Made by a program: the position numbers and the translations under genes
Sequence record: DRR723986_3096
Length of the DNA: 64,000 bases
Strand: one strand, 5' to 3'
Notes under the pieces: model-generated
The model's database searches: none
Seen by the model: the letters and a program-made list of their open reading frames with translations, nothing else
Told to the model about the DNA's origin: nothing
Shown: piece by piece, positions 25,872 to 43,066 of the stretch
How positions within the stretch are numbered: position 1 is the first letter of the stretch
Layout: the number at the start of each line of letters is the position of its first letter

Positions 25872-26135
25872 GCCAATCCCCCAAAATACAGTCCGAATGT
25901 GTAATCTACGATGTGTTTTGTGATGACCTTTGATCCACTTGCAGATCACGTGCCGATCCACTCGCAGGGCCACCAATTCCCGGCCCACTATACCGCACTG
26001 GCTGACGAATTCATACTGTATGGACGGTAATGCCAGGTAGGCGATCAATGCAGTTGGATTATCCGTTAAGTGGTTTGTTGTTGATGCAACGCGCCCGTTG
26101 AAGCGTGTTTTGGGAAGCGTTCGGAAGCAAGTGGA

Positions 26136-26804
26136 ATGACAGAAGATCCGAAAGTTGTTTGGCACGCCGAATCAGTCGGCCGTGAGGCTCGGCAGGCACA
26201 CCTAGGGCAGCGTGGTTGTGTCATTTGGTTCACGGGACTGAGTGGATCTGGCAAGAGCACGGTTGCCAACGAGGTGGATCGTTTGCTCAGCGAGAACGGC
26301 CGACACACGTGCCTGCTGGACGGTGACAACGTGCGGCATGGTCTATGTGCCGGCCCGAATTTGCTCGAGCCCGAACATGGCAGCGATTTTGCACAGCGGT
26401 TCGGGCTTGGCTTCGGTGCACAAGACCGCGCGGAGAACATTCGCCGCATCGGAGCAGTCGCACAACTGTTTGCGACAAGTGGCCTGATTGCCTTGACCGC
26501 GTTTGTGAGTCCCTATCGAATCGATCGCCAACGCGTGCGGAAGTGGGTCAACTCACAAGGCACTCAGGGAGATTTCGTCGAGGTCTTTGTTGACACGCCA
26601 CTAGAGGTGTGTGAGTCGCGAGACCCGAAAGGTCTGTACAAACTGGCTCGTGAAGGCAAGATTGCCAACTTTACGGGAATCAGCGATCCGTATGAAGCAC
26701 CGGAGAATCCTGAGTTGCATTTGGCGGGTGCAGATGGCACGCCAACGGAACTCGCACAGCAGGTCGTCGACTACCTTACAACGGGAAACTACCTTCACCA
26801 GTAG
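26136..26804 (+). CDS. cysC: Adenylyl-sulfate kinase
   Basis: [37 protein letters not shown] and [11 protein letters not shown]. Confidence 0.95.
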
Positions 26805-26814
26805 TTTGCGACGG

Positions 26815-29800
26815 CTAGCTGGATTTCGAGGCCTGGAACTGCTCTTCACCCGTTGTGAGGTGACGCTGGAGTGCCCGGGCCAAGTGTTCTACGTTGGGCG
26901 ACTGGACCATGCTATGGTGATGCCCCGGCACAAACTCGACGGCCACTTGATCGACCAAGTAGCCCCACCCGCGATCTTCTGAGGGACGAGGCCCATTGAT
27001 CTGCACCGGTGTTTCGCTGGGCCGGAACAACAGGATGTTGCACTCGATCGGCTCCAATTTGAAGATCGTGGATAGTTCGACATGACGGTGAAACAACCCT
27101 TGAAGGTCTTCCAGCGTTTGTGCTACCACCTCGGGAGGAGACTCCTCGGTCAGGACGCCAAGCTTCTTAACGTGCTCGAACAACAGCGGCAATTGCTCTT
27201 TGGCAGAAAGCTCGCCCAACTGTTCCAGCGTCATCTCGATACCGTACTCAAGCCCAACGTTGACGCGTTCATCCTTGGGCACCAACGGTGTCGACTCTTC
27301 CGGGATTGTCGTGTCGAGTAGCAACAGCCGCTCGATCTCGACACCACTGGCCAAGCACTGTCGTGCCATCTCGTAGGCGATCAATCCTCCGAGCGACCAA
27401 CCACCAACAATGTATGGCCCCTCAGGCTGAACGGTTCGAATGGCTTCGATGTATTCCTCCGCCATCGATTCAATTGATGTCGGCAACTCTTCATCGCCGT
27501 GCAGCCCACGCGAGCGAATCCCATATACAGGTTGGTCGTCGCCTAGGCACTTCATCAAGTCTTGATAGCAGATAACGATTCCACCAGGCGGGTGAACCAA
27601 GAAGATTGGCCGCTGGCTCCCACCGGTGCGAAGCGGCGTTATCAGCGACGCAGCCCCATGACGCGCCGCCGAGCTGACTGCGGCAGCGCCGAATCGCTTC
27701 GACATGGTCTCGTCGTGCAACTCGTAGAGGCTGCAGGCCATTGATCGAATCGTCGCTAAGTCGAAGATGAGCGCAGCGGGGACTCGAATTCCAAGTTCTT
27801 CAGATAGCCTTGTCGTCAGCATGGCGGCTTGCAAGGAGGTGCCACCTGCTGCGAAGAAATTCTCGTCGATCGATATCGCATCACAACCGATGACTTCAGC
27901 CCAGCTATCATGCAGGAACTGCTCTGCCGCGTTCTCGGGTGGAAGAACTTGACGACCGACTGTCAGCGAGTCGATAGTGCTGGGTAATTGTTTGCGATCG
28001 ACCTTGCCGCTGGTCAACATGGGCATGGTGTCGACTGGCAAAATGGCGTCCGGTCTCTTGAAAGCTGGCAGTTTCGCGGCAAGTTCGACACGAATCTGTG
28101 CGATGGCCTGTTGTTGATCAGCGTCGGCTGCAAGCTGGACAAACAGGGCAAGCGTGCTGTTGGCTCCTGGCCCCTCGACAACTTTAGCCGCACATCGAAC
28201 GGCCTTGGAACACTCCGCTGCGGCCGACTCAACCTCGCTGAGTTCGATCCGATAGCCGCGCACTTTGACCTGGTGGTCGGATCTTCCTAGGAATTCGATA
28301 GCTCCGGAGGTTAGCTTGCGACCTCGATCGCCAGTCAGATAGACTCGCCGCGTCGGATCGAGCGGATGCGATACAAAACGCTCGGCGGTCAACTCAGGTG
28401 CACCGACGTACCCATTGGCCAGGCCGTTTCCACCGATGGCGATCTCGCCAGGAATGGTATCAGGGACCGGCATTCGGTCTCTGCCGAGTATCAGAACTTC
28501 GCAACCGGCAATCGGAGGGCCAATCGGAATCGTTCGACGAGCGTCATGATCCAACAACTCAATTGCAGTTGCCTCAACTGCAGCTTCGGTAGGGCCGTAA
28601 AAATTCCAGAACTTGCTCGCAGTCTTGGTGGCTTGGATCTGGCTAGGAAGTTCCGTCGGCATACTCTCACCGCCGGTCCACACGTACCTTAGCGACTTGC
28701 ATTGACTGAACTGCGGCTGTTCAACGAGCAGACTAAGAAGGCTCGGCACGGCTGGCAAAACACTAATGCGTTGCTCGCGGATGAATTCTACCAACAGGGC
28801 TGGATCGCGCACTGTCTCGTCATCGGGCCATACCAGCGTGGCCCCTTGGGTGAGAGTCGTCCAGGCGACGCCCAGTGCGGCATCAAACTGGTGCGAGAGC
28901 AACATGAGAACGCGGTCACCCTTTTCAAGTGGTACCGCCTGAGCCCGCCAGTTGAGCGTATTACCAATCGCGGCAAACGGCACTTCGACGCCTTTGGGGC
29001 GTCCTGTTGAACCGGAGGTATAGACTACGTATGCAGCAGCATCGTCCTGAATCTGTTGCATAGCTTCATTGGCAGCAGTTCCAATCTCAGTAGATTCACC
29101 GGAAGCAGATGCTTGATTACTCGAGACGACGGATGCTGCTGATGCGGGCAGCGTGCGGGTATCGATTTGAGCGACAGAGGGCAACGCCCAGTCACTCGTC
29201 GTATCGCAAACGCAGCGTTTTGCTCCCGTGTCGGCGGCTAGGTCTGCCCATGTGACTGATGGCTGTCGAGCATCAATCGGAATCGGGACCGCGCCGACTA
29301 ATTGCACGCCGAGCATCGCAGTGAACGCAGAGCGGCCGCCTTTACAAAACACCGGCAAGCGTTCCCCGGGTTGGACGCCGACCTTTGTTAGCTCACTAGC
29401 CAGTTGCATCGCGGAGTTGACTAAGTCAGCGTACGACGTTTGGTCATCGCCGAGGGTGAATGCTGTAGCGTCAGGTGCATCCACTGCGTGGCCAATGATT
29501 TTCTTCGCAACGTTGAATTCTGGTGTGTCACCATTGAGCACCGGTGCAGTGGCAGCAACGGAAGAAACGATTGCTGGCAACCTAGTGTCTGGACGACTTA
29601 GGCCAGCATCCAAAATCTGCGAAAAAACGCGGGCGAACTGCTGCATTGTGTCTGCGGCGAAGAGGTCTTTGCAGTAGCAGACCATGCCCTTCAGTTCATC
29701 GGCACTGTGTTCAAAAATGAACTCGACGTCGTAGTGGCAGGTTGGGTGCTCGAAGTAAAAACTCTCCTGCCGCATTCCTGCAAACGTCCAAGACTGCTCT

Positions 29801-31005
29801 TCACCAGGGAACAAAAACGAAGCACGACCAGCCTCACTTTTGACCTGAGCCTTCTCAAATGTGCAGGAAACTTGGAAGAGCGGACTTCGGCTGCTATCGC
29901 GAATCACATCGCTCTGGGCGACAATCTGACTGATCGGGTACTCTTCATTCTGAAGGGCGTCGATCAGAGTTCGGCCGCAACGCTGCGCTTGCTCTGCAAA
30001 TGTTGGATTGTTCCGAACATCGAAAAGCAGCGGTAATACATTGACAAAGAAGCCAACCGTCGTCTCAAAATCGCGTTGACTGCGTCCTGTAAATGGACTG
30101 CCGACGAAGAACGCCTCTTGGCCACTGTAGCTGGACAAGGTTGCTGCGATGGCGGCGTGGACGATAGCGACGGGAGTCACCTTTAGCTTGCTGGCTAGTT
30201 CGCTTAGCCTTCGCCCGCTGCCAGCAGAGATTTCCAGGCTCGCCACTGAGGCTCTGCCCGTGAATTTCGCCGGTCGCAGAAAATCCGTCGGCAGCTCAAG
30301 GGCGCTATCTCCCTCGGCGAGCTGGTTCATCCAGTATTGTCGCTGTCTCTGACCCCCCTCAGAGTCGAGCAATGCCGATTGCCGCTGAACGAACTTGCCA
30401 TAGTTGTTCTGCGGATCAGGCAAATGCACCGGTATGCCATCAGCGAGCCTTGGATAGCTTTCACGCAATTCGCCAAGAATCAGGACAAGCGACCAGTAGT
30501 CGACAACAATGTGATGCGCTTGGGCAAAGACAATCCAGTCATCATCAGCAATCCGGTAGACGTTCAAACGCAGAAGTGGACCGCTGCGAAGGTCGAAAGG
30601 AACGGCCGCCTGCCTAGCTAGTGCACTGTGGATTTCGGCATCACTGGCGCCCAGCAAATCTTCGACCTGAAAGCCTGGTGGCAGGTCATCGTGGATCGTT
30701 TGCAGGGGCCGACCGTCTTCGTCAGAGAATGTCGCTCGCAAACTGCTGTGACGTCGCGCGACTTGGTTCAGTGCCTCGCGCAGAACCTTGGGCTGCAATC
30801 TGCTGCGCAGACGTGTTGGCAGAAATACATTGAACGAGGTCGCTTCGGGCGCCCGGCGAAAGTCATGCCAAAGGCCTTGCTGACCATGAGACATGGGGAA
30901 CTGCTTGCTGCGGCGAGACTTTTCTTCCAACAGCTTTGCAAGCAGCGTCCTCTTTTGCTCGGGCGAGAGTTTTGAAACGTCCAAACCGTCTACTCTATCG
31001 CCCAC
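26815..31005 (-). CDS. Single-module NRPS: docking-C-A-PCP-TE
   Basis: C domain HHIVVDYWS; A domain YTSGSTGRPKG, YGPTE, YLTGD and GKVDRK; PCP FFAAGGTSL; TE GWSLGG...GHH. Confidence 0.95.
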   Translation of the reverse strand: MGDRVDGLDVSKLSPEQKRTLLAKLLEEKSRRSKQFPMSHGQQGLWHDFRRAPEATSFNVFLPTRLRSRLQPKVLREALNQVARRHSSLRATFSDEDGRPLQTIHDDLPPGFQVEDLLGASDAEIHSALARQAAVPFDLRSGPLLRLNVYRIADDDWIVFAQAHHIVVDYWSLVLILGELRESYPRLADGIPVHLPDPQNNYGKFVQRQSALLDSEGGQRQRQYWMNQLAEGDSALELPTDFLRPAKFTGRASVASLEISAGSGRRLSELASKLKVTPVAIVHAAIAATLSSYSGQEAFFVGSPFTGRSQRDFETTVGFFVNVLPLLFDVRNNPTFAEQAQRCGRTLIDALQNEEYPISQIVAQSDVIRDSSRSPLFQVSCTFEKAQVKSEAGRASFLFPGEEQSWTFAGMRQESFYFEHPTCHYDVEFIFEHSADELKGMVCYCKDLFAADTMQQFARVFSQILDAGLSRPDTRLPAIVSSVAATAPVLNGDTPEFNVAKKIIGHAVDAPDATAFTLGDDQTSYADLVNSAMQLASELTKVGVQPGERLPVFCKGGRSAFTAMLGVQLVGAVPIPIDARQPSVTWADLAADTGAKRCVCDTTSDWALPSVAQIDTRTLPASAASVVSSNQASASGESTEIGTAANEAMQQIQDDAAAYVVYTSGSTGRPKGVEVPFAAIGNTLNWRAQAVPLEKGDRVLMLLSHQFDAALGVAWTTLTQGATLVWPDDETVRDPALLVEFIREQRISVLPAVPSLLSLLVEQPQFSQCKSLRYVWTGGESMPTELPSQIQATKTASKFWNFYGPTEAAVEATAIELLDHDARRTIPIGPPIAGCEVLILGRDRMPVPDTIPGEIAIGGNGLANGYVGAPELTAERFVSHPLDPTRRVYLTGDRGRKLTSGAIEFLGRSDHQVKVRGYRIELSEVESAAAECSKAVRCAAKVVEGPGANSTLALFVQLAADADQQQAIAQIRVELAAKLPAFKRPDAILPVDTMPMLTSGKVDRKQLPSTIDSLTVGRQVLPPENAAEQFLHDSWAEVIGCDAISIDENFFAAGGTSLQAAMLTTRLSEELGIRVPAALIFDLATIRSMACSLYELHDETMSKRFGAAAVSSAARHGAASLITPLRTGGSQRPIFLVHPPGGIVICYQDLMKCLGDDQPVYGIRSRGLHGDEELPTSIESMAEEYIEAIRTVQPEGPYIVGGWSLGGLIAYEMARQCLASGVEIERLLLLDTTIPEESTPLVPKDERVNVGLEYGIEMTLEQLGELSAKEQLPLLFEHVKKLGVLTEESPPEVVAQTLEDLQGLFHRHVELSTIFKLEPIECNILLFRPSETPVQINGPRPSEDRGWGYLVDQVAVEFVPGHHHSMVQSPNVEHLARALQRHLTTGEEQFQASKSS

Positions 31006-31008
31006 AGA

Positions 31009-34000
31009 CTACTCGCTTTCTCGCAACAACTGTCCAAGCAGCTTGTTTACTTCGTCGTCATTTAACTCTGGCAACTGCGCCAGCAACTGCTCTGCATCAC
31101 CAGCATGCTCGGGCGACGATTCATGCGCCGAACCATCCTGATCCGAATTTGCTTTAATCGAATCATCGGCCGAGGTGACCGCGACTTGGGGAGTGCTACC
31201 GCCAATGAGCTCACTAACGCCTTGAACCAATTCACCGTAGGACTCGCTTCTCATCAGCAAAGCGATCGGCATGCTAATTTCCATGTGACTCTCGATCCAA
31301 TTTCGCATCTCGACCGCCATCAGCGAATCCAAGCCAAGTTCCAGCAGAGCTCGATCGGCCGGAATATCTCCTGGAGCGACGCCTAGCAGGCTGCCCGCTT
31401 TGCTGCGAAGTCCTGTGTCGATCATCTTCAGACGCTCTTCCTCCGATGCACTACGAAGCGAAGCCGCGGTCGCCAGGCCGCCATCTTGTGATTCGCCGGG
31501 AGCGTGAACGAGCAAGTGTTCAAACCGCGGCGACACGCGATTGGTAATGCCCAGCCCACGCCAGGTTGACCAGTCTATGCGGAGTACGCTCATTTGCACA
31601 ACCCGCTGTGACAATGCATAGTCGAGGCAATCGGTGGCCTGCTTAACAGTAAAGCTCAGCACGCCTTGCCGCTGGAGTCGCTGCCCCAGCTCATCACGCT
31701 CGGCAAGATAACCAACCTCGCCCAAGTGGCCCCAGTTCATTACCAATCCAGGCAATCCCTGAGCCCGTCGATAGAACGCCAGGCTATCCAGCAGCGCGTT
31801 TGCTGCAGAGTAGTTGGCTTGGCCCGCGTGCCCAAAGACACTGGAAAGCGAGGAGAACAAAATGAAGCAGTCGAGTTCCCGTCCGAGCGTCTGTTGGTGC
31901 AGGTTCCAACCACCCAGAACTTTTGGATAAAGAACACGATCAAGCGTCTCGCGATCTAGGTCCGGAATGAGCTTGTCTTCCAAGACCATTGCCGTATGGA
32001 TGACACCAGCCAGTGGCGGCAGATCTTCGTCGATGATCTTTAGAACCCGCTGAACTTCGTCAGCGCTTGTAACGTCAGCCGGGATTAGTTCAACTCTAAT
32101 GCCTTGCCCACGTAGTTGCTCGATCACCTCCGCCGCAGCGTCTCGCGGAGTTTTACTTCGACCGGTGAGCACTAGATTCTTCGCGCCGCGCTGACACAAC
32201 CACTTTGTGATTTCCAGTCCGAAACCTCCCAGACCACCGACCACCCAGTAAGTTCCGTCTTCACGCATCTCAGCAGGCGAGTGCTCTCCGGGGAAAACGG
32301 GCTCGGGCCGACCGTCGAATGTGACCGCGATCTTGCCAATGTGTTGCCCACTTTGCATATACTTGAATGCGTCGACGGTCTCCGGTGCAGCAAAAGACTT
32401 GACAGGGATGGGCTTGAGTTCGCCCGAAGCAAACCGCTGCATCAGCTCCCTGAGCATCGTCCCCATCCACTGAGGCTTTCGCTTGAACAGTTGATCAAGG
32501 TCGATAGCGTGTAACGCGAGATTGTTTCGGAACGGGTAAAGCCCCAGCGGTGCATCCGAATAAATATCGCGTTTTCCAATCTCGAGGAAATGACCTCCGG
32601 TGCGAAGTGTTGACAATCCGACCTTGATTGCCTCACCTGGCAGGCTGTTCAGAACGGCGTCCACGCCCTCGCCATCGGTCGCGGCCAGCGTTTCAGGGCC
32701 AAAGTCGAGTGACCGCGAGTTCATAATGTGCTCAACGCCCAAACTGCGAAGATAGCGGCGTTTTTCGTCGTTTCCGGCCGTTGCGAAGACTTCAATCCCC
32801 TTCAGTTTCGCAAGCTGCAGCGCCGCCAGCCCAACTCCCCCACTGGCTGAATGAACCAGCAGACGATCCCCTCGTTCCAAATGAGCGCAGTTCTCCATCG
32901 CGTGCTGAGCTGTCAGGAAAGCGATTGGAATCGCACAAGCTTGTTCGAAGGTGAGGTTCTCTGGCATCTTAGCAACCAGAGCTTCGTCGACAACGACGTG
33001 CGTCGAAAATGCGCCAGGTGCGATGGCGACCACCGGATCGCCCTCGCTGAACCGGCAACCAGAGCCAACACGCGTGACGACGCCAGCACACTCGGCCCCC
33101 AAATCCACCGGGCCATCAGCCATGCCTGGATAAAGGGCCAACGACTTCATTACGTCCGCGAAATTCAATGCGCCGGCGCGAACCTCAATTTCCAACTCGC
33201 CGGATTCCAAGTAGCCTGGATCAAACCCGTGCACTCCGAAGCGACCATCGCGGATCGTGGTGTATCGCATCTCCTCGATACTAGCCGACTTGCCGGGCGT
33301 CAGGCGGCTTGGCAATTCATTCGCAACTGAGGTCGGCAATGCTTTTTCATCCTGCCGTCCAAAACGACGAACGAACCTGCTGCCGTCACGCCACATAATC
33401 TCGTCTTCGCCATCCCAGCATGCCAGCTCGTCAACCAAGCAGTCGAGGTCCGTTGTGGCGGGCTGCGAGGGCAAGTCGATCAGCTTGGTCTCGAGGGCTG
33501 CGTACTCGCTGACGATAACACGCGCCATTCCGATAAGCGGTCCAGCGGCAACCGACACCAGTTCTGGTTCATCTTCCATCGATTGCGCACCGGCGGTCAC
33601 CACGCTCAGGCGGGCTGTGGGCGAGCCAGACAGCTTCTCCCAGGCTTGCACTAGTGAAACGGGTGCGACGGAAGTCAGATGGGTGCTTTCCTGAAGAGCT
33701 GTGCAGTTCAGCAAATGCGGCTGAGGCACATCGTTGCCCCAGAGGTAGACAACGGAATCGATCGTTCCGCCCGCGTCATCAAAGACTGCCCGCAGGGCGT
33801 CCGTAAAACTCTCAACCGATTCCGGATCGGCCTGATAGAAGCGTGACGTGGCCGTCTTGGCTACTTGTGAATCATGTCGGTACACTTCGAATACTTGTCC
33901 GCCCCGGCGAACCAAACGCTCGGTGATCTCGCGTCCCACGCCACCTTCGTCCATGAAGATCAGCCACTTCGGCGACGGTGGCAGAGTGTCTTCGGCTGGG

Positions 34001-37000
34001 GCCGCAGCACTGGCCTGTGAATCAAGTGGGTTCTCGATCCACGAATAGGCATACGCCATGTCCTGGAGCGTTTCCTTGCCCGTCGAATGACCTACTTTCT
34101 GACTAACAAAAGACTCGATCGAAATACAGAGCCTTTCATCGGCGTCATAAATGTTGACGTCGCAGCGCATCTTTCGATCTGTCTTTGAGATCAACTGGCA
34201 GTGGACGATTGCAGCCGCTCCCGGGTTGCCATAGTATCGAAATTCTTCGATCTCGTTGGGTAAGTAGAGGCCACTGTTGGTGTGATCGAAGTCTGGATCC
34301 GCTGCGATCATCGCGTGAAAGCAACTGTCCAATATGGCTGGGTGGACAACATGCTCTGCCGAGCTAGCGTCCAGCTCCGGCAACGAGACTTCAGCAACCG
34401 CCTCGCCGACACGACGCACGCCGTGTTGAATTCCCTTGAACAACGGCCCGTACTTCAGGCCAATCGATTGGCAGTAATCATACAGCCGGTCTTGGTCGAA
34501 CTGCTCATTGCACCGGCTTCTTGCCTCTCGCAAAATTGACGACGATTCCAAGGGGCGTTTGGCAGCCAGCGAACTCAAATCGGCTACAGCCATTGGCTGC
34601 CAGTGCTCGTTGTCACAATCGCGAAATGCAAGTTCCACCATTCGCCGATCTGGAACATACCGCGTTTGTATCCACTTCGAGTTGGCATCGGTCAACGTGC
34701 AAGCTGCTTGAAAGCGAACTCGTTGGACCATGAATGGCTTGGTCGAAGAGGCATCGTCGGAGTCCCCAATTTCTGCGGGCCGACCGTTGTCGCCGGCCAT
34801 GTTGATCTCGCGTCCGGCGGCAACAATCGTGTCCAGCATGGCCGCCGCCGGGTACATAATTGCATCACGGACCGAGTGGTCAGACAGATAGCGTTGCAGA
34901 CCGAGGTCAATCCGAGATTGCCAAACCGGCGCGTCGGTGTCAGCTCGTTCCCCAAGCAGTGGGTGCACCGGTGTAGCCGTCCTGGAAAGGCGGCTTTGTA
35001 GCGATTCGGACCAACAGACCTGCTGTTCGAACGGATAAATCGGCAAATCGATTCTTCGCGTCGGCTTGTTGTAAAAGCCAGACCACTTGATATCAAAACC
35101 CATTGAATAGAGGTCACCCAGCGACTTGGTGATTACCTGCAAATCGTCTTGCTGTCGATTGAGCGATGCGACGGTGCGGACGTTACTCCCAGCCGCCTGA
35201 AAACATTCGTTGATCGAGTAGGCCAGGACTGGGTGCGGCCCAACTTCGACGGCTACACCAATGCCGCGCTGAGCGACGCTAGCCATTGCATCGGAGAATC
35301 GCACGCTGTGGCGAACGTTTTGCCACCAATAGTCTGCCCCAACTTCTTTGCCGCAAATCTCTTTTCCAGTCACCGTCGAGATCAACGGAACCTTGGTTTC
35401 CGATGGCCGAATGCCGCCGAGCGATCGAAGCAACTCCTCTCGGACCGGCTCCATCTGCGGGCTATGGAATGCATACTCAACGGTCAATCGGCGCCAGAAA
35501 ATCCCCGCCTCCTGGAGCCGACTTCCGATTTCATCGATAGCATCTTGCGCCCCGGAGATCGTTACCGAAGTCGGCCCGTTGATGGCCGCAATCGAAACAA
35601 CGTTTTCCAAACCTTGAATCCATTGCGGGACTTCTTCCGCACTCAGGCCAGCGGCTAGCATGCCGCCGTGCGAGCTCGCAAGGTCCATCGTTCGTCCACG
35701 ATGGAACGCAACCAACGCAGCGTCCTCGAAAGACAGTGCACCGGAGAGGTGGGCGGCGGCGATCTCACCGACACTATGCCCAACCAAAACGGCGGGACGC
35801 ACACCCCAGCTTTCCCAAACGGCGGCGAGTGCAACTTGGATCGCAAAAATACTCGGCTGAGCGATGGAGGTTTGATTCATCCTCGATTCCGACTCAGGCC
35901 GTGTGAGCTCCTCCATCAGGGACCACGACGCGTACTTCGAAAGCTCTCGGTCGCAACGCTTGATGGCCGAACGGAAAGCGGGCGAGTACTTGAGAAGCCC
36001 GCGGCCCATGCCCCACCACTGCGGCCCTTGCCCACTGAGCACGAACGCCACGCCAGAGCTGAGCCGTTGAGCACTTACTTCGTCACCAAGTTCACTGTGG
36101 TTGGACGCCGCAATCTCACGCAATTGCTCAATCATCGAAGAGCGATCTGCAGCAGAGGCGGTCGTGCGTTGGCTGTGATGCGAACGTCGATGTGCGATAT
36201 AGCCGGCAATCTCCGCCAGATGCATTCCCGGATCCAACGACTGGAGAGCATCCGCATATTCGCCAGCGAGAGCTGCAAGCGATGTTTTGCTGCGAGCCGA
36301 AAGCGGCAAAAGGACCGGAGCTTCGAAACTCGGCGGTTGGTTGTTTTCTTTACCGCGTGTGGTTGGCTTTGCTGATTCAGCAGAATCTTGTCGCAGAGAG
36401 TCCGATGCAGCCTCCTGTCTTCGACCGGCTGGTGCAGTTGCTTTTCGCGAAGACTGCGGAGCGGACTCAAGGACGATATGTGCATTTGCACCACCGTACC
36501 CAAATCCGTTAATACCAGCCAAACGCGGACTGTCGCTGGACCAATCACATAACTCAGTTGGAAGTTGCAGACGCAGCGCTTCAAAGTCGATTGCAGGATT
36601 GGCAGATTGGAAATGCAAATGCGGCGGAATAGCACTATGGTGCATCGCCAGAGCGACTTTGATCACACTGGCGATTCCGGCTCCCGCCTCAAGGTGGCCG
36701 ATGTTGGTCTTTACCGAGCCAATCCAGCACTTCGAATTCCGGTTACGCTCCGCGCCGAGAACGGAGCCAATCGCATTGGCCTCAATTGGGTCGCCAACGG
36801 GCGTCCCTGTCCCATGCGCTTCGACGTACTGAATGTCACCGGGCTCCACTTGAGCTTTTTCGCAGGCAGCCTTGATCAGTGACTCTTGGGCCGACTGGCT
36901 TGGCACGGTCATGCCTGGTGTTCGACCATCTTGATTGAGTGCCGTCGAGCGGACGACCGAGTAGATCGGATCACCGTCGCGCATCGCAGCAGCCAATGGT

Positions 37001-37785
37001 TTAAGCATCACCATTCCTGCGCCTTCGCTGCGCACATATCCGTTCGCTCGAGAGTCGAAGGTCTTGCAGCGACCGTCGGGCGAAAGCACGCCGAGCTGAC
37101 TGAACGCGACGTAGAAATCCGGCAGAATTAGAGCGTTGACTCCACCAGCTAGTGCCATTTCGGCGTCGCCTCGCCAAATGCTCTCGCAGGCCATGTGCAT
37201 GGCTACCAACGATGATGAACAGGCCGTGTCGACGGCGACACTGGGGCCACGTAGGTCAAAGCAATAGGAGATCCGATTGGCAGCGATACTGCTTGATCCA
37301 CCGGTGTTGCTGTATGCATCGATAACGCCACGGTCCTGGTAGCTCAATCCAGCGACGGCGTAGTCAAAGCTTGAGATCCCGGCGAAAACCGAGACGCTTC
37401 GCCCGGCTAGCCTGCCGACTTGAACCCCAGCGTCTTCTATCGCCCGATACGTACACTCCAACAGCATTCGCTGCTGCGGATCCATGCTGGCTGCCTCGCG
37501 AGGCGAAATCTTGAATAGCTGCGGGTCGAACAAATCGATGCCCTCAACGTACCCGCCCCACTTGCTTTGCGTCTTGCTGACCGTCGTGTCACCAGGGGAA
37601 TAGAACTTATCCAAGTTCCACCGCGCCGGTGGCGTTTCGGTGATGCAGTCTTTTCCGGAGCGAAGGTTGCTCCAGTACGCCTGCCAGTCGTTCGCGGCGC
37701 CGGGGAAACGACAACCAATGCCGATAATCGCAATTGGCTCGTTGGCGGTCGCGGCGTTGATGTTTCGATATTGTTGTTTGCTCAT
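31009..37785 (-). CDS. Type I PKS, single fully reducing module: KS-AT-DH-ER-KR-ACP
   Basis: KS DTACSSS, HGTGT and KTNIGH; AT GHSVG and YAFH; DH HPLLG...DHSVRDAIMYP...DSCFH; ER HSASGGVG; KR GGLGGFG, LED and YSAAN; ACP LGLDSL. Strong RBS CAGGAGG. Confidence 0.95.
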   Translation of the reverse strand: MSKQQYRNINAATANEPIAIIGIGCRFPGAANDWQAYWSNLRSGKDCITETPPARWNLDKFYSPGDTTVSKTQSKWGGYVEGIDLFDPQLFKISPREAASMDPQQRMLLECTYRAIEDAGVQVGRLAGRSVSVFAGISSFDYAVAGLSYQDRGVIDAYSNTGGSSSIAANRISYCFDLRGPSVAVDTACSSSLVAMHMACESIWRGDAEMALAGGVNALILPDFYVAFSQLGVLSPDGRCKTFDSRANGYVRSEGAGMVMLKPLAAAMRDGDPIYSVVRSTALNQDGRTPGMTVPSQSAQESLIKAACEKAQVEPGDIQYVEAHGTGTPVGDPIEANAIGSVLGAERNRNSKCWIGSVKTNIGHLEAGAGIASVIKVALAMHHSAIPPHLHFQSANPAIDFEALRLQLPTELCDWSSDSPRLAGINGFGYGGANAHIVLESAPQSSRKATAPAGRRQEAASDSLRQDSAESAKPTTRGKENNQPPSFEAPVLLPLSARSKTSLAALAGEYADALQSLDPGMHLAEIAGYIAHRRSHHSQRTTASAADRSSMIEQLREIAASNHSELGDEVSAQRLSSGVAFVLSGQGPQWWGMGRGLLKYSPAFRSAIKRCDRELSKYASWSLMEELTRPESESRMNQTSIAQPSIFAIQVALAAVWESWGVRPAVLVGHSVGEIAAAHLSGALSFEDAALVAFHRGRTMDLASSHGGMLAAGLSAEEVPQWIQGLENVVSIAAINGPTSVTISGAQDAIDEIGSRLQEAGIFWRRLTVEYAFHSPQMEPVREELLRSLGGIRPSETKVPLISTVTGKEICGKEVGADYWWQNVRHSVRFSDAMASVAQRGIGVAVEVGPHPVLAYSINECFQAAGSNVRTVASLNRQQDDLQVITKSLGDLYSMGFDIKWSGFYNKPTRRIDLPIYPFEQQVCWSESLQSRLSRTATPVHPLLGERADTDAPVWQSRIDLGLQRYLSDHSVRDAIMYPAAAMLDTIVAAGREINMAGDNGRPAEIGDSDDASSTKPFMVQRVRFQAACTLTDANSKWIQTRYVPDRRMVELAFRDCDNEHWQPMAVADLSSLAAKRPLESSSILREARSRCNEQFDQDRLYDYCQSIGLKYGPLFKGIQHGVRRVGEAVAEVSLPELDASSAEHVVHPAILDSCFHAMIAADPDFDHTNSGLYLPNEIEEFRYYGNPGAAAIVHCQLISKTDRKMRCDVNIYDADERLCISIESFVSQKVGHSTGKETLQDMAYAYSWIENPLDSQASAAAPAEDTLPPSPKWLIFMDEGGVGREITERLVRRGGQVFEVYRHDSQVAKTATSRFYQADPESVESFTDALRAVFDDAGGTIDSVVYLWGNDVPQPHLLNCTALQESTHLTSVAPVSLVQAWEKLSGSPTARLSVVTAGAQSMEDEPELVSVAAGPLIGMARVIVSEYAALETKLIDLPSQPATTDLDCLVDELACWDGEDEIMWRDGSRFVRRFGRQDEKALPTSVANELPSRLTPGKSASIEEMRYTTIRDGRFGVHGFDPGYLESGELEIEVRAGALNFADVMKSLALYPGMADGPVDLGAECAGVVTRVGSGCRFSEGDPVVAIAPGAFSTHVVVDEALVAKMPENLTFEQACAIPIAFLTAQHAMENCAHLERGDRLLVHSASGGVGLAALQLAKLKGIEVFATAGNDEKRRYLRSLGVEHIMNSRSLDFGPETLAATDGEGVDAVLNSLPGEAIKVGLSTLRTGGHFLEIGKRDIYSDAPLGLYPFRNNLALHAIDLDQLFKRKPQWMGTMLRELMQRFASGELKPIPVKSFAAPETVDAFKYMQSGQHIGKIAVTFDGRPEPVFPGEHSPAEMREDGTYWVVGGLGGFGLEITKWLCQRGAKNLVLTGRSKTPRDAAAEVIEQLRGQGIRVELIPADVTSADEVQRVLKIIDEDLPPLAGVIHTAMVLEDKLIPDLDRETLDRVLYPKVLGGWNLHQQTLGRELDCFILFSSLSSVFGHAGQANYSAANALLDSLAFYRRAQGLPGLVMNWGHLGEVGYLAERDELGQRLQRQGVLSFTVKQATDCLDYALSQRVVQMSVLRIDWSTWRGLGITNRVSPRFEHLLVHAPGESQDGGLATAASLRSASEEERLKMIDTGLRSKAGSLLGVAPGDIPADRALLELGLDSLMAVEMRNWIESHMEISMPIALLMRSESYGELVQGVSELIGGSTPQVAVTSADDSIKANSDQDGSAHESSPEHAGDAEQLLAQLPELNDDEVNKLLGQLLRESE

Positions 37786-37841
37786 GTTGTCTTCCTCCTG
37801 GCGGAGAATTCTCTGGCTGGTTTCTCAGCGTTGCTGGCGGG

Positions 37842-39062
37842 CTAGTTACCAGATCGAAAGGCCTCGCTAGGCAGCATCCTCGACGCTCGAACGGCCGGCA
37901 GGATCGCACCGATCAAGCCAATGCACAGCGAAAGGATGACGCCCTGCAGGATTACCGTTGGGGCGATCGAGGGTGAAAGGATCCCCTTCGCAGCGGGTGC
38001 TTCGCTGAGCAGCCGTACTAGTACGACCGCCACGACACATCCGATGGCGCTGGCGATAATTGCCAAGCCGCATGATTCACACATCACCATGGCAACGATC
38101 CGCTTCTTTGGCCAACCAATTGCACGCAGGATGCCAATCTCACGAGTTCGCTCCATGACACTGGTCAACATGGTATTGAGCGTTCCGATCGAACCGATGA
38201 TCAGGGCAATTGCTGACGTCATCCAGGCCATGGCTCCAGCCATCTGCATCCGTAGATCCGTCTCCACAAATTCGCTGGTAGCGAGCGCCAGGAGCCGAGA
38301 ATCCAGCGCTTGAATTCCCGCGATAGCGTCATCTGCACTGGCCGCACCGCCACCGGCGATAACTGTTTTGTCCAGGATTACGTTGATGTAGGTGACCTGG
38401 CCCTTGCGATCGGTCAGACTCTGCAGCAGTTCAAGCGGCAGAATCATCGATCCGTTTTCCCAAGTGCTCGGGCTCTCAAATACGCCCTCGACGCGATATG
38501 TTTCATCGAAAAGCAGAATTTCTCCTCCCGCTTTTTGCCCAATTCGTTCGGCCAGGTGAATTCCCAGGAAAACGATCTTGTCGGCAGCGCCGCCCGCTCC
38601 CTCTGTTGCGGTCGTTTCGACATCAGCCGCCGGGCTCTCGCTGTCACCTTGACTGCTAGCATTGGGCGCATCAGAGGCGATCACGCGGTCGATGGAATAA
38701 TCTTCGAGCAGCCAGGAATCGAGTGCGATGCCCATCGTGGGCAGCCCGTAAACGCCTTCCTCTTCGAGCGAAAGGGTTTCCAGGAGGACTCCCGCGGCAC
38801 GGTCTACTTCGGCAAGCTGTTCGATTTCGCCAACCATTGCCGCATCCACACTGCTACTCAGGCGATCAGCGGACCCGTCTCGCGACACAACGACGTCGAC
38901 CGAGTGGGCTGCGTAAATATCCGCGAAAGAGCTACTGAAACCATTTGCTACGCCAATCAACGCAACCACGCTGGCGATTGCCGTGGACAGAGCCAATAGG
39001 GTTAGTAGAGTCCGAGCGGGGCGTCGCGTCAGATTCTTGATGACCAGCGAACTGAATCGCAT
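37842..39062 (-). CDS. ABC transporter permease, MacB/FtsX-like
   Basis: KNLTRRPARTLLT N-terminus, a periplasmic loop, and SVMERTREIGILRAIGW. AGGAGG precedes ATG 39062. Confidence 0.88.
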   Translation of the reverse strand: MRFSSLVIKNLTRRPARTLLTLLALSTAIASVVALIGVANGFSSSFADIYAAHSVDVVVSRDGSADRLSSSVDAAMVGEIEQLAEVDRAAGVLLETLSLEEEGVYGLPTMGIALDSWLLEDYSIDRVIASDAPNASSQGDSESPAADVETTATEGAGGAADKIVFLGIHLAERIGQKAGGEILLFDETYRVEGVFESPSTWENGSMILPLELLQSLTDRKGQVTYINVILDKTVIAGGGAASADDAIAGIQALDSRLLALATSEFVETDLRMQMAGAMAWMTSAIALIIGSIGTLNTMLTSVMERTREIGILRAIGWPKKRIVAMVMCESCGLAIIASAIGCVVAVVLVRLLSEAPAAKGILSPSIAPTVILQGVILSLCIGLIGAILPAVRASRMLPSEAFRSGN

Positions 39063-39525
39063 CCCGCCTCCTTCTATGCTCTTAGTCTCACGAATACTGG
39101 CCATCTATGGGCCGGCGCTATAGGTAGCACTTGCAGGGGGCGATTGTACACCAGCAGGAGCGACCTTTTAAAGCTGGTATTAGAACACTCTGCCCGATGA
39201 CAGTTCACCGCACCTCGGTAGTTTTCGGCTTTCCGAATCTCCGACCTGAGCGAGTTTGTTGGACTGCGTGGATTCTAGCGACCGTCAGCGGCATTGAGGC
39301 CCGGGGACTTTTCCTATCGGGCGAACTCAAACGCCTAGGGGGACTAGGTGCCTGCCGGGGACGCTCCCGAGGATAACGCCTCTGCAGTGAACCGGAATTG
39401 TGGCGAATGGGAGTGTGGCACCAAACCGATCCAATATTCAGGAGTTGCCGTTTTCGACGCCTGCGAACACGCAACAAGCGGAATCAAAATGCGGCTCTCC
39501 GGCCAACCCTTGCTGAGAATCAACC

Positions 39526-40608
39526 ATGCGTACTTTGCTGATCGTACTCCTTGCCGCTTCAAGCACCCTGGTTCTGGGTTGTCGGAGCAGGCCGATCAAA
39601 ACGATCATGAACGGCAGCATGAATATGGTTGGCCGCATGGACATGTCCGGCGGCATGGACATGACGGGGCAGTTGGCAACTGCGTTCAGGACAGACAACA
39701 CTGCGTCGCGTCTCAGCGCTGTCCCGGTGTATCGAAATGTTACAAGTGGTGGTAGCGTGGCCGTTCTAGACGTGGACGGCCTGCTGGTAAATAAGAACAT
39801 GGCTGGCATGGGTTCGATGGGAGAAAATCCCGTTGCGCTCTTTCGCGAAAAGCTAGACCAACTTACCCGTGAACCTTCGGTGAAGGCAATTGTGCTGCGC
39901 ATCAACAGCCCCGGAGGAGGCGTTACGGCCTGCGACATCATGCTCCGCGACCTCCTTGCTGTGAAGCAGCAGCGCGGCGTACCGGTCGTCGCTTGTATCA
40001 TGGACGTCGGCGCTGGTGGAGCCTATTACTTGTCGACTGCCGCGGATGCCGTCGTAGCGCATCCCACATCGATTCTTGGCGGACTCGGGGTAATTCTGAA
40101 CGTCTACAACCTGGAACTGACCATGAATCAGGTGAACATCGCCAGCATTCCAGTCAAAGCTGGAGAGCACGTCGATATGGCTTCACCGGAGAGGATGATG
40201 GAACAGGTCGAGCGCGAGCAGCTTCAAGCGATGGCGGACGACCTACACCAACGATTGATCGATCGCATCACCGCCTCTAGGCCATCGATCTCCGCCCATG
40301 CGGACGATATCTTCAGTGGAAAAATCATGACCGGAGAGCGAGCTGCGGAATTGTCCTTGGTCGACGACTTGGGGTATCTCGACGACGCAGTTGGCCTAGC
40401 GCGCGAGCTCGCCGGTCTGCCGGCAGACAGCTCTGTCGTCATGCTTAGGCGAGATAACGACCGAGCGTACACGCTACTGGATGTGACGCCAAACTCGCCT
40501 ACAATGTCGTCCTTGATTCCGCTCAACGTGCCCGGGTTGGATCGTCAATCGTTGCCAACCTTTCTCTATATGTGGCAGCCGGAATCGAAATTGGTTGCAG
40601 GCAATTAA
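39526..40608 (+). CDS. S49/SppA-fold lipoprotein, probably catalytically inactive
   Basis: Lipobox-like LVLGC; VKAIVLRINSPGGGV, PVVA and VDDLGYLDDAV. Catalytic motifs are altered (see findings). Confidence 0.8.
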   Translation: MRTLLIVLLAASSTLVLGCRSRPIKTIMNGSMNMVGRMDMSGGMDMTGQLATAFRTDNTASRLSAVPVYRNVTSGGSVAVLDVDGLLVNKNMAGMGSMGENPVALFREKLDQLTREPSVKAIVLRINSPGGGVTACDIMLRDLLAVKQQRGVPVVACIMDVGAGGAYYLSTAADAVVAHPTSILGGLGVILNVYNLELTMNQVNIASIPVKAGEHVDMASPERMMEQVEREQLQAMADDLHQRLIDRITASRPSISAHADDIFSGKIMTGERAAELSLVDDLGYLDDAVGLARELAGLPADSSVVMLRRDNDRAYTLLDVTPNSPTMSSLIPLNVPGLDRQSLPTFLYMWQPESKLVAGN

Positions 40609-41795
40609 CCATCGCAGGAACACTCAGGTTGAACCCTAACGAACAAACTGAGTTACCGACCGAGGGTGATGCTCCCCGAACAGCGATTGATAACGCGAAG
40701 CAGCCCGACGGCCTTATTGTCCGGGGATTACGAAAGTGCCTCGGGCTCGCCGCGGTGCTTTTGCTGATTCAGTTTCTCTTCACCCTAGTCGCTCGATTCG
40801 GCGATACCATCGAGCTCGCTAGCCACTTCAGCATGCACGCCCTGGTGGCCTCTTGCCCAGTTGTGCTCGGTGCATTGATTCTGCGCAGCCGAGCGTCCCT
40901 CTGGATGGGCCTCACTGTATTGCTTGGGCACCTGATAATCGTACAGCCCTGGAGTTTGTACCTAGCCACACCGACCAGCCTGACGACCAAGTACGAACGC
41001 TCGTTGACGGTTCTTTCATGGAATGTGCTCAGTTCCAACTATCAGTTCGAAGCGGTTGACGAAGTTATTCGTAATGCCGATGCTGACTTGTTGATATTGA
41101 TCGAAGTGCGGCCAGGATTCCTAGACGACCTGAGCGCCATTGAAGAACTCGGTTACCAACGACGGCTTGTGCGACCTAGTTGGCGTGGCGGAGGAATCGC
41201 TGTCTTCGCCCGCGATAGTTCCATCGAGCTTGAGGCCATGGACTTCGGCTACGAGACATACCCGGTGATCGTTGCGAAGATCCCACGCGAATCTGGGCTG
41301 CGCAGCGAAGCGGTCCCGGCCCTAAGCTCTGACGATCTGGAAGCACCAACGGAAAGTGGCTCTAAGCCCAGCGGACCGGAGAGCCCTGCCGAGAATCCCG
41401 CCGAGAGCTTTGCCGAGAACCACGAACAACCCGTCTACTTGATTGCACAGCATACGTTTTCCCCCATGCCGATCTCCCGCACGCCACACCGAGACAATCA
41501 ACTGCTGGCGTCCGTGCAATTCGCTCTTGAGCACTCAAGTGCACCGACACTTCTGGTTGGGGATCTCAACGTAACGCCTTGGGCTCCGGTCTTTGGTGAG
41601 TTGCTTGATGCTGGCTTCGAGGACTCTCGGGTCGGTAAAGGAAATTGCCCAAGCTGGCCTGCTGGAGCCGGACCAGTAGGAATTCCAATTGACCATGTGC
41701 TGCACCGCGGAAAGTGCGCTGTTTCTCAGCGAGTGGTGTTGCCGACTGCCCCCGGTTCAGACCACCGTCCAGTCAGTTTTACGTTGCACTACTGA
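40572..41795 (+). CDS. Endonuclease/exonuclease/phosphatase family protein with N-terminal TM helices
   Basis: LSWNV, LIEV, GDLNVTPW, IDHVL and GSDHRPV. Exact start uncertain. Confidence 0.85.
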   Translation: MAAGIEIGCRQLTIAGTLRLNPNEQTELPTEGDAPRTAIDNAKQPDGLIVRGLRKCLGLAAVLLLIQFLFTLVARFGDTIELASHFSMHALVASCPVVLGALILRSRASLWMGLTVLLGHLIIVQPWSLYLATPTSLTTKYERSLTVLSWNVLSSNYQFEAVDEVIRNADADLLILIEVRPGFLDDLSAIEELGYQRRLVRPSWRGGGIAVFARDSSIELEAMDFGYETYPVIVAKIPRESGLRSEAVPALSSDDLEAPTESGSKPSGPESPAENPAESFAENHEQPVYLIAQHTFSPMPISRTPHRDNQLLASVQFALEHSSAPTLLVGDLNVTPWAPVFGELLDAGFEDSRVGKGNCPSWPAGAGPVGIPIDHVLHRGKCAVSQRVVLPTAPGSDHRPVSFTLHY

Positions 41796-41888
41796 GTTGC
41801 GCTGCGCTACTGGTTTTTGGGGGTGCGCTAGTTTTTGGGCTCGCTGAGTCTTGGACTGCCGTACTGGCCGGCTCAAGCAGCCCTTCGA

Positions 41889-42752
41889 CTACGCCTGCTT
41901 CGGAAGTGCTTGTTGGATGCGTTTCATCACGCGCGTCCAGCCCAGACATTTTGCGAGCGCTAGTGGCGTCATGCCATTGCCTGCTGGCTTGGCGGGATCC
42001 GCTCCATGAGTCAGGCAGACGTCAACGCCGTCGAGCGATCCGGCGAGTGCAAGTTGGTGTATGAAGGTAAAACCTTTGTCGTCGGGCTCGTGAACCATCT
42101 CAGGTTTTTCTTTCAGTTGCGATTCGAGCGACTCGCGCATGTTGACTGACATCGGGTGCTCCGCCGCAGCCACTTCGGCGTAGTCCTGTGGTTTGCTACT
42201 GCCGCCGAGAATCTTGCCAAGCAACCCGCCCTTGGGAGCTTTTCCGCCGATGTACTGTGGTGGGACCAAGTTGACGATTCCTACCTTTCCGAAGTTCATC
42301 CCCCAAGCATCGTCGTGCTGCTTTCGTTCCGACTTTCCCAACCGCGAACGCATCAAGTCGACAGTGAATCCGCCGTAGACGTGACCTGCCTGAACATACA
42401 TCCAGTCTGTGAGCCGCTTGCCAGGCACGCTGACTCGGTCACCCTCGCTAACGCTGCGGAGTGAATTGGGGGAGTTGATCAGTTGTCCAGTGACCTCCTT
42501 TCCATCGAAGTTCACATCGACCATCCACATGTGCTCGACTTCCAGGCCGCCGGGGTTCTCCGCTCGCACCTCTTCGGGATCCGAGAAAGCGGCTTTTACC
42601 GCAGACATCTCAAGCCCGGGGATGATGCGTCGGTAATCCCAGGCCAGCTCACGCCAAAAATAGCGAAACGTCTTTCTTGCTTTTGCAGCGGCTTGTGCCA
42701 TCTCCTTGTCGTCACCCTCGAAAAGCATGACGGTAGATTCGCTCTCAGACAT
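41889..42752 (-). CDS. DUF2314 (YegJ-like) protein with C-terminal ankyrin repeat
   Basis: FRYFWRELAW...EHMW...GQLINSP...DWMY...GGFTV, followed by an ankyrin-like GFTFIHQLALAG...HGADP...GMTPL. Confidence 0.75.
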   Translation of the reverse strand: MSESESTVMLFEGDDKEMAQAAAKARKTFRYFWRELAWDYRRIIPGLEMSAVKAAFSDPEEVRAENPGGLEVEHMWMVDVNFDGKEVTGQLINSPNSLRSVSEGDRVSVPGKRLTDWMYVQAGHVYGGFTVDLMRSRLGKSERKQHDDAWGMNFGKVGIVNLVPPQYIGGKAPKGGLLGKILGGSSKPQDYAEVAAAEHPMSVNMRESLESQLKEKPEMVHEPDDKGFTFIHQLALAGSLDGVDVCLTHGADPAKPAGNGMTPLALAKCLGWTRVMKRIQQALPKQA

Positions 42753-43066
42753 CTTGACCAGACCCAAATAAAACCAGAGTTATCGATCGCCCTCATTCGG
42801 CAAGCGCAAAACGATTTTACAAATCGCGACACCGGATTTCAAGCAGCCTCGAACTCCCCAGTCTTAGAGTGAAAACCGACGGCGTAGTGCTACTGCGGCT
42901 CAGTTGAACGTCGTTGCCCGTCCAAGCCCTCTCGACTTGCCGCAAACCAGCCGATCCATTTTGCAAGGCCTTCATGTCCAGGCCCGTCACCGACACGGTG
43001 GTGGAAGCTGGCCTAATTTTGCACTAAGCTAGTCGGTCCACTCCACTCAATCCTGATCACGAAGTC

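Follow-up and report, generated by a model that had tools for sequence, protein, structure and literature searches.

In a 64,000-nucleotide stretch of sequence record DRR723986_3096 (hereafter the window), three minus-strand genes encoding a permease, a polyketide synthase (PKS) and a nonribosomal peptide synthetase (NRPS) were found head-to-head with the gene of an S49-family lipoprotein, based on the open reading frame (ORF) listing and Pfam matches. The locus is a genuine orphan cluster, well delimited and widely conserved, and represents a variant of the known PKS-NRPS lipoamino-acid logic. As read from its sequence, it couples an intact, loader-less and fully reducing PKS with one terminating NRPS module, a pair that is co-inherited with a MacB-type permease and an SppA-like lipoprotein predicted to be catalytically dead. 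The ORFs of the permease, the PKS and the NRPS are all uninterrupted, and the coordinates, the minus-strand order and the gaps of 56 bp (permease-PKS) and 3 bp (PKS-NRPS) reported in an initial annotation of this DNA agreed with the ORF listing. Pfam also confirmed the domain calls made there for the PKS, the NRPS and the permease, with E-values far beyond chance. The components of the locus, taken from the ORF listing and Pfam (from the coordinates for the intergenic region), are:

26815-31005, minus strand: NRPS, 1396 aa, a single terminating module of condensation, adenylation, peptidyl carrier protein and thioesterase domains (C-A-PCP-TE)
31009-37785, minus strand: PKS, 2258 aa, a single fully reducing type I module of ketosynthase, acyltransferase, dehydratase, enoylreductase, ketoreductase and acyl carrier protein domains (KS-AT-DH-ER-KR-ACP)
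37842-39104, minus strand: MacB-type FtsX permease, 420 aa
39105-39525, no strand: divergent intergenic region between the permease and S49 genes, 421 bp
39526-40608, plus strand: S49 pseudo-SppA lipoprotein, 360 aa (Pfam Peptidase_S49)

The PKS matched the Pfam models KS, AT, PS-DH, ADH_zinc_N (the ER), KR and PP-binding with E-values from 5.8e-93 to 9.5e-12, and all catalytic motifs of the six domains are present in the window translation:

36610-37740, minus strand: KS domain, residues 16-392, with the active-site Cys in DTACSSS and the His motifs EAHGTGT and NIGHLE (translation)
35128-36045, minus strand: AT domain, residues 581-886, with GHSVGE and the substrate motif EYAFHS (Pfam, translation)
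34087-34965, minus strand: DH domain, residues 941-1233, with the catalytic His in HSVRDAIMYP and a DxxxH motif (Pfam, translation)
32323-33204, minus strand: ER domain, residues 1528-1821, with the NADPH motif HSASGGVG (Pfam ADH_N, ADH_zinc_N and ADH_zinc_N_2)
31723-32256, minus strand: KR domain, residues 1844-2021, with GGLGGFG and YSAAN (Pfam KR, 7e-65)
31222-31410, minus strand: ACP, residues 2126-2188, with the phosphopantetheine Ser in GLDSL (Pfam PP-binding, 9.5e-12)
31012-31113, minus strand: acidic tail at the PKS C terminus, AEQLLAQLPELNDDEVNKLLGQLLRESE, probably a helix that docks onto the NRPS

With the KS starting at residue 16, the protein has neither a loading domain nor an N-terminal carrier or ligase domain. 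Among the PKS ORFs examined, the window's included, the KS motifs DTACSSS and EAHGTGT were present in 36 of 36 and 34 of 36, the AT motifs GHSVGE and EYAFHS in 36/36 each, the ER motif and the KR motif Y[SA]AAN in 35/36 each, and the DSL serine of the ACP in 36/36. In the aligned sequences, which also included that of the window, the His...Pro of the DH and the Asp and final His of its DxxxH motif were each found in 36 of 37. By the HAFH/YASH rule, the Phe in EYAFHS points to malonyl but its Tyr is atypical, and the AT is tentatively read as malonyl-type and not methylmalonyl-type.

The NRPS matched the Pfam models of the C, AMP-binding, PP-binding and Thioesterase domains (E-values from 3.5e-82 to 3.1e-14) and showed every feature of a terminating module, namely the four domains in order, the HHxxxD motif, the adenylation-domain Asp and Lys, the PCP Ser and the GxSxG of the TE:

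29578-30906, minus strand: condensation domain, residues 34-476, with HHIVVDYWS (Pfam, 3.5e-82)
28003-29484, minus strand: adenylation domain, residues 508-1001, with the core Asp and Lys (Pfam, TIGR01733)
27736-27918, minus strand: PCP, residues 1030-1090, with GGTSL (Pfam PP-binding, 3.1e-14)
26866-27612, minus strand: type I thioesterase, residues 1132-1380, with GGWSLGG and GHHHSM (Pfam, 1.7e-28)
within 26815-31005, minus strand: basic N-terminal helix of the NRPS, LSPEQKRTLLAKLLEEK, probably a docking element matching the PKS tail

In the NRPS-containing ORFs, again with that of the window, the C-domain motif HH...D.[WFY]S, the PCP motif F..GG.SL and the TE motif GGWSLGG were each conserved in 44 of 44, and GHHHSM in 43 of 44. 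The database search returned 820 homologues of the NRPS at E <=0.001, and many of the 120 listed were full-length Pirellulaceae proteins with 40-70% identity. The C domain was nearest to the elongation type (TycC 2jgp, 169.5 bits), which fits a donor delivered on a carrier protein. A lipo-initiation (starter) C domain was considered and rejected, since the surfactin starter domain (8f7f/8f7h) matched weakly, at 48.7-51.7 bits.

The ten pocket residues of the adenylation domain, read from alignment columns and numbered by the GrsA convention, are D-A-G-P-W-G-F-V-E-K. The pattern D-A-[GAC]-x-[WF]-G-[FLC]-[VI]-E-K was shared by 40 of 45 family members, the window's included, and the other five, forming one clade that contains the Stieleria loci, have D-A-P-Q-W-G-[FY]-C-Q-K. 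The conserved Asp and Lys of the pocket indicate that the substrate is an alpha-amino acid, and the loaded amino acid would be the same in nearly all family members. Glycine specificity, suggested by the top PDB match, LgrA, was rejected because the 390 bits are the sum of two adenylation domains; the glycine domain alone scored 227 bits, no better than other PDB matches.

To place the cluster among its relatives, species-representative genomes (one genome per species) were searched with an alignment of 24 NRPS homologues, and 300 genomic stretches matched the NRPS family. Locus counts rest on the best 80 of these 300 matches, which correspond to 65 loci, nearly all labelled Planctomycetota or Pirellulaceae; the loci were scored by tblastn with the window proteins and a count script, and only evaluable loci enter the denominators. 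In 45 of 58 evaluable loci the PKS immediately precedes the NRPS (seven were not evaluable for the PKS), and the permease lay upstream in 27 of 32 evaluable PKS-positive loci. PKS and NRPS were fused into a single ORF of >3000 aa in nine loci, including that of Rhodopirellula europaea 6C. All 28 separate PKS proteins examined, that of the window among them, end in the acidic tail LL..L(P).M.D..V..LL, which is most divergent in L032 and L043, and the separate NRPSs open with the basic helix LS..QQRELLAKLL, in place of which the fused forms have a linker. The adjacency, the fusions, the PKS tail and the NRPS helix together indicate that the chain made by the PKS is passed on to the NRPS. The proposal that permease, PKS and NRPS form one unit is therefore borne out by conserved synteny, by the nine PKS-NRPS fusions and by the matching docking tails. 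A synteny comparison had been suggested in the initial annotation, and on the 65 loci the linkage of permease, PKS, NRPS and S49 genes proved to be conserved.

Two loci stood out by their record labels. L047 (labelled Phycisphaera sp. RhM) and L060 (labelled Chitinophagaceae) carry the cluster inside Pirellulaceae-type clades of the NRPS tree, where L047 adjoins Stieleria magnilauensis. These labels may reflect mis-binning or mislabelling.

The permease consists of an N-terminal transmembrane helix, a periplasmic core at about residues 32-247 and an FtsX C-terminal membrane domain at residues 295-410, with no fused ATPase (Pfam FtsX 2.7e-18, MacB_PCD 2.8e-10). The family profile best matched the MacB structures 5gko, 5lil and 5nik, and LolC/E far more weakly. 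The family alignment begins at Met15 of the ORF, so the true start of the permease may lie 42 bases downstream of 39104.

Divergent from the permease gene, the S49 protein (Pfam Peptidase_S49, 3.2e-31) carries a lipobox-like LVLGC with Cys19 after its signal peptide. Its S49 domain aligned over about 215 residues with Bacillus subtilis SppA (3rst/4kwb, E 5e-35) and with Escherichia coli protease IV (E 1.2e-29), and it scored 151.2 bits against TIGR00706, just under the cut-off of 155.45. In the alignment to B. subtilis SppA, a Gly stands under the nucleophile Ser and a Val under the general-base position; the latter is Ala in the deposited chains 3rst/4kwb, which we take to be Lys-to-Ala mutants. 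The nucleophile position was Gly in the window protein and in all 22 locus orthologues covering the site, and among the best 120 database homologues (55-68% identity) none of the 101 that matched the search pattern has Ser there, the other 19 falling outside the pattern and being left unscored. The general-base position was Val or Ile throughout the family. The S49 lipoprotein of the cluster is thus predicted to be catalytically dead throughout its family, and the lipobox together with Gly and Val at the dyad positions bears out the name pseudo-peptidase lipoprotein given to it at the outset. Public records call the homologues "S49 family peptidase", "protease IV" or "SppA", and these peptidase names overstate what the sequence supports.

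The S49 gene was present in 22 of 26 evaluable permease-positive loci, in 20 of them divergent as in the window and in two downstream beside a phosphopantetheinyl transferase (PPTase) gene; it also lay downstream in two more loci that are cut short upstream. No S49 match was found in the 13 loci with a stand-alone NRPS. This linkage and the dead dyad across the family uphold the earlier assignment of the lipoprotein to the unit. A complex prediction for permease residues 55-288 with S49 residues 55-360 gave a score of 0.00, which, obtained without controls, counts neither for nor against binding.

A Met/Gly-rich stretch (M.G.M.M.GDM...) was observed at about residues 27-48 of the S49 protein (window 39604-39669), between the lipobox Cys and the S49 domain. 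It was present in 114 of 120 database homologues and in the locus orthologues L005-L061, and presumably resembles Met-rich Cu(I)-binding repeats or peptide-binding "methionine bristles".

We then asked which other genes belong to the cluster. A Pfam scan of the window covered 36 large ORFs, six of them re-scanned at a looser threshold, and 18 small intergenic ORFs of at least 55 aa. It revealed no FAAL, stand-alone ACP, PPTase or tailoring enzyme, and no cognate MacB/LolD-type ATPase, fused or adjacent, was found in the 64 kb, all in agreement with the initial annotation. When 634 ORFs from the window and the 65 loci were clustered into gene families, only four families besides the PKS and NRPS occurred in at least eight loci: the permease, the S49 protein, ABC ATPases and a generic Ser/Thr kinase. 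Neither a FAAL nor a loading ACP recurred in the 65 loci, which makes the loader-less state, first noted for the window, a trait of the whole family. Tailoring genes likewise did not form any recurrent family in the related loci.

In 11 related loci the NRPS gene is immediately followed, on the opposite strand, by the gene of an orthologous ATPase (56-73% identical between loci), for which the best NCBIfam matches were MacB, LolD and DevA. Counted over the evaluable PKS-linked loci, it was present in nine of 38. A Sfp/HetI-type PPTase was found inside the cluster in four related loci of one clade (L055, L058, L059 and L060), between a gene designated f5 and the S49 gene. The f5 family encodes secreted proteins of about 310-340 aa and occurred in nine related loci, always beside the MacB/LolD-type ATPase; a second family, f8, encodes secreted proteins of about 300 aa and occurred in six. 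Neither has a Pfam or NCBIfam match. Examples are L058:14999-15946 (plus strand) and L058:18100-19041 (minus strand), with counterparts in L019, L020, L023, L032, L039, L043, L055, L059, L060 and L062, and both proteins may contribute further periplasmic components to the export system. The absence of ATPase and PPTase genes therefore holds for the window and does not hold for the system. The initial annotation had reasoned that finding the rest of a larger cluster elsewhere would mark this locus as a fragment; in part this proved so, as such parts were found inside the clusters of some relatives, and since these relatives keep ATPase, PPTase, f5 or f8 in the cluster and the window does not, the window appears to carry a dispersed version.

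Two further ATPases were considered and rejected. The only ABC ATPase of the window (17406-18155) is of the DrrA/NodI type, lies beside an ABC-2 permease and is 29% identical to the cluster ATPase of the relatives, and the ABC ATPase fragment beside the S49 gene in L010 belongs to the Uup-like ABC-F proteins.

The gene following the S49 gene had also been described with the locus in the initial annotation:

40572-41795, plus strand: EEP-family membrane-anchored protein, 407 aa (ORF listing, Pfam Exo_endo_phos, 4.1e-24)

It overlaps the S49 gene by 37 bases. The protein had no tblastn match at E <=1e-5 in the 65 related loci and formed a singleton family in the clustering, and gene maps showed that the nine loci with at least about 450 bases beyond the S49 gene hold unrelated genes in its place. 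The EEP gene was thus rejected as a member of the unit and is a chance neighbour in the window only.

On balance, we consider that the locus probably belongs to a Pirellulaceae-wide, uncharacterised system that joins a saturated acyl chain to one amino acid, releases the product through the TE and exports it, a reading in which we place moderate confidence. The KS would be primed directly, without a loading domain, by an acyl-CoA or acyl-ACP from fatty-acid metabolism or by a malonyl-derived acetyl group. The PKS module would then carry out one or several malonyl extensions with full reduction, as mycocerosic acid synthase does, giving a saturated acyl-S-ACP. The elongation-type C domain would convert the carrier-bound acyl group into an amide with the alpha-amino group of the PCP-loaded amino acid, and the TE would free the N-acyl amino acid. 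The permease, together with a MacB/LolD-type ATPase encoded elsewhere in the genome, would extract the amphiphile from the cytoplasmic membrane or the periplasm. The N-acyl amino acid product, already put forward in the initial annotation, remains the simplest reading.

Comparisons with known systems place this chemistry closest to mycobacterial enzymes. The best PDB match of the PKS was Mycobacterium tuberculosis mycocerosic acid synthase (MAS; 9d2z), with one colinear stretch over residues 16-2191 and 987 bits, and the PKS aligned end to end with the mycobacterial Pks2 NCBIfam model at 1177.7 bits, below the equivalog cut-off of 2400, which indicates the same architecture and not an orthologue. 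MAS and Pks2 are also single KS-AT-DH-ER-KR-ACP modules that begin with the KS and have no loading domain. In the mycobacterial MAS/Pks2 systems, PapA-type condensation-domain acyltransferases offload the acyl chain, so an enzyme of the C-domain fold would do so in both cases. The differences are that the acceptor here would be a PCP-bound amino acid in a full NRPS module and theirs is a polyol or sugar, that the AT motif EYAFHS would not be of the methylmalonyl type by the HAFH/YASH rule, and that the window PKS lies far under the Pks2 cut-off, has no FAAL nearby and comes from another phylum.

AB3403 of Acinetobacter baumannii (4zxh) shares with the window NRPS the C-A-PCP-TE order and a similar length (1320 versus 1396 aa); its matches (C 104.3, A 171.8 and TE 96.3 bits) reflect only distant similarity. 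AB3403 receives its acyl group from a carrier protein that is not part of the module, and the same would apply to the window NRPS. In the window, however, that carrier would be the ACP of a reducing PKS joined by docking tails, or by fusion in relatives, and the neighbouring genes differ.

The initial annotation had compared the locus with fungal highly reducing PKS-NRPS hybrids. Iterative hybrids do share one reducing PKS module followed by one NRPS module, and the relatives of the window include fused forms. The parallel nevertheless fits less well than that with the bacterial MAS, the best structural one: the PKS matched the fungal PsoA (9x29, 654.4 bits) and LovB (7cpx, 603.3 bits) less well than MAS, its ER is in cis and looks active, and release would be by a TE and not by a reductase or Dieckmann domain. 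The fully reduced chain of this PKS would also be without the beta-keto group needed for tetramate formation. The polycyclic tetramate macrolactam class was rejected, as an ER with its NADPH motif is present and no clustered FAD-dependent oxidoreductases were found in the window.

On the export side, the permease resembles MacB, LolCDE and DevBCA, the type VII ABC exporters, in combining FtsX with a MacB periplasmic core domain, and the ATPase of the relatives is MacB/LolD/DevA-like. DevBCA, which exports a polyketide-derived glycolipid, offers a functional precedent. In contrast to these exporters, the window permease has no fused or cognate ATPase and no linked membrane-fusion or TolC-like gene. 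We know of no S49 pseudo-peptidase lipoprotein described as a partner of a type VII ABC exporter. Compared with SppA (MEROPS S49), the cluster protein has the same fold and domain length; it differs in having no Ser/Lys pair, in its lipid anchor and Met/Gly-rich linker, and in being tied to a PKS-NRPS cluster.

N-acyl amino acids are also made by N-acyl amino acid synthases (NAS). Membership in that class was rejected, because there is no small GNAT-fold N-acyltransferase in the cluster and the amide bond would come from the NRPS C domain; the system may work like a NAS without being one.

Several observations weigh against the proposed acyl-amino acid system. When the KS-AT part of the PKS was compared alone, the modular CurL scored higher (679.5 bits) than the M. 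smegmatis MAS-like KS-AT (570.8 bits), and the sequence is thus compatible with both iterative and single-round action of the PKS; PDB bit scores serve here as a weak proxy for the iterative or modular class of a KS. The similarity of the adenylation domain to solved structures singled out no one substrate. The NRPS had no PKS within reach in 13 of 58 evaluable loci (L002, L006, L008, L009, L012, L014, L017, L021, L026, L038, L042, L045 and L054), where its neighbours are housekeeping genes (uvrB, flagellin and aldolase, for example). These stand-alone forms are scattered over a tree of 59 NRPS sequences and require at least four changes, so the linkage to the PKS has been broken repeatedly, the stand-alone NRPSs are not one separate paralogue group, and PKS-NRPS coupling is not obligatory in cis. 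They have kept the docking helix and the pocket code, which suggests continued docking to a partner whose gene lies elsewhere. Upstream of the permease, the closest relative, L001 (70-84% identity), has a LuxR-type gene and not the S49 gene, and the 64 kb of the window contain no orthologues of the cluster ATPase, PPTase, f5 or f8. The part played by the pseudo-SppA is conjectural: it would keep the peptide-binding fold without cleavage and might act as a periplasmic binder, acceptor or adaptor. No product, expression or phenotype data were found for any family member in the searchable literature.

The same chemistry might instead belong to specialised metabolism, its product being secreted, for example as a signal, biosurfactant or antibiotic-like lipoamino acid, with the pump serving export or self-protection and the pseudo-SppA immunity or sequestering. 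N-acylated tyrosines that affect biofilms are known from Stieleria, where the accessible sections of the sources attribute them to a different, NAS-type cluster (PMC7293339, PMC12078418). MacB-type pumps, the closest structures to the permease, export small molecules, and some relatives lack the cluster or have it rearranged, as is typical of accessory metabolism. Against this stand the 300 genomic matches and the near-invariant pocket, which look like conserved physiology and not like diversifying secondary metabolism, and there are no tailoring genes in the window or as recurrent families in the related loci. We regard such a secreted metabolite as unlikely.

Somewhat more doubtful still is a Lol-like lipid-trafficking route. 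Such a pathway would be previously unrecognised and built around a pseudo-protease. Here the loader-less, MAS-like PKS would act as a dedicated fatty-acid synthase for the NRPS, the product would be one particular envelope lipoamino acid, and the MacB-type transporter would take this lipid out of the inner membrane and hand it to the dead SppA-like lipoprotein, a periplasmic carrier or receptor that would use its retained groove and Met-rich tether.

It is also improbable, to a slightly greater degree, that the TE transfers the acyl-aminoacyl group to a sugar, lipid or protein, or cyclises it, as part of a complex envelope lipid whose other enzymes are encoded elsewhere. The PCP-TE part does match the C-terminal end of Pks13 (NCBIfam 5.3e-34; Pks13 TE in the PDB 65-68 bits), and the Pks13 TE is an acyltransferase to trehalose; the secreted f5 and f8 proteins accompany the cluster in nine and six related loci. 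However, the nearest structures to the TE are ordinary NRPS thioesterases, which score higher (7crn 105.8 and 4zxh 96.3 bits), and no glycosyltransferase or acyltransferase is conserved beside the cluster.

That the locus is a decaying or incomplete, non-functional remnant in the genome of the window is highly improbable: orthologues of the ATPase, PPTase, f5 and f8 are indeed missing and an APS kinase gene follows the NRPS, but the three long ORFs (3.9, 6.8 and 4.2 kb) run without a break and keep all their catalytic motifs, most relatives are also without an adjoining ATPase, and systems of this kind usually have their PPTase gene at another site.

With regard to published work, we found no description of this cluster family, or of its S49 pseudo-peptidase link, in the openly searchable full-text literature. 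The accessible part of a 2025 review names five planctomycetal compound classes, none of them attributed there to a PKS-NRPS, and discusses genetic tools for planctomycetes (PMC12078418). Hybrid NRPS-PKS clusters in Pirellulaceae were reported by Graca et al. in 2016, for which the accessible text offers no more than NaPDoS guesses, epothilone or HSAF for instance (PMC4982196), and species descriptions, as far as their accessible text goes, merely count "mixed type I PKS-NRPS" clusters (PMC13241502). For the stieleriacines, the part of the source available to us proposes an origin from a NAS cluster (PMC7293339), and a link of the present cluster to these compounds was rejected since their proposed cluster is NAS-based.

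The main interest of the family lies in its breadth within the Pirellulaceae and in its conserved pseudo-protease partner. It constitutes a widespread orphan PKS-NRPS target with a near-invariant pocket, for which true and chance neighbours are now sorted, and the matches include cultured carriers of the genera Stieleria, Novipirellula and Rhodopirellula. A MacB-type permease conserved alongside an inactive SppA-like lipoprotein may mean a new role for pseudo-proteases in the export or trafficking of amphiphiles. Even if the reading of the product is wrong, the locus remains a well-delimited orphan cluster.

The intergenic region at 39105-39525 presumably holds the promoters of both divergent units. 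Between positions 26000 and 42200, promoter-like sites were no commoner than in shuffled sequence (seven versus 5.8 expected), and seven terminator-like sites were seen where 15.6 were expected. No Rfam family was found in 24000-44000, the intergenic region included.

The related contig nearest to the window is labelled Pirellulaceae, and elsewhere the window encodes members of typical planctomycete families (Pfam DUF1501, DUF1549/DUF1553, PSCyt and DUF1559). A multihaem cytochrome is encoded at 8067-10352, besides DUF1501 genes and DUF1549/DUF1553 pairs. The large proteins at 45172-47907, 54633-57956 and 61979-64000 join DUF7133, HEAT repeats and cytochrome c domains and likewise represent families common in planctomycetes, without an assigned function. 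Two ORFs, at 51484-53394 (minus strand, 636 aa) and 53605-54579 (plus strand, 324 aa), had no Pfam match even at E 0.01.

In the place after the NRPS, the window has an APS kinase gene (26136-26804, plus strand), convergent with the NRPS gene and ending 10 bp from its stop. A tblastn search of the 65 related loci gave no match to it, so nothing seen here ties it to the cluster. The gene shares 30 bp with the 5' end of a xylulokinase ORF (24351-26165, minus strand), whose FGGY domain begins only at residue 102; the real start of that ORF is probably further downstream. About 5 kb from the NRPS end, at 19975-21805 (plus strand), lies a pair of genes for an accD-like carboxyltransferase and a Ser/Thr kinase. 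This pair recurs, 87% and 73% identical, at L014:4480-6306 upstream of a stand-alone NRPS orthologue, where it adjoins a different KS-KR-DH synthase, and its position near the NRPS could reflect either shared regional ancestry or a link through malonyl-CoA supply.

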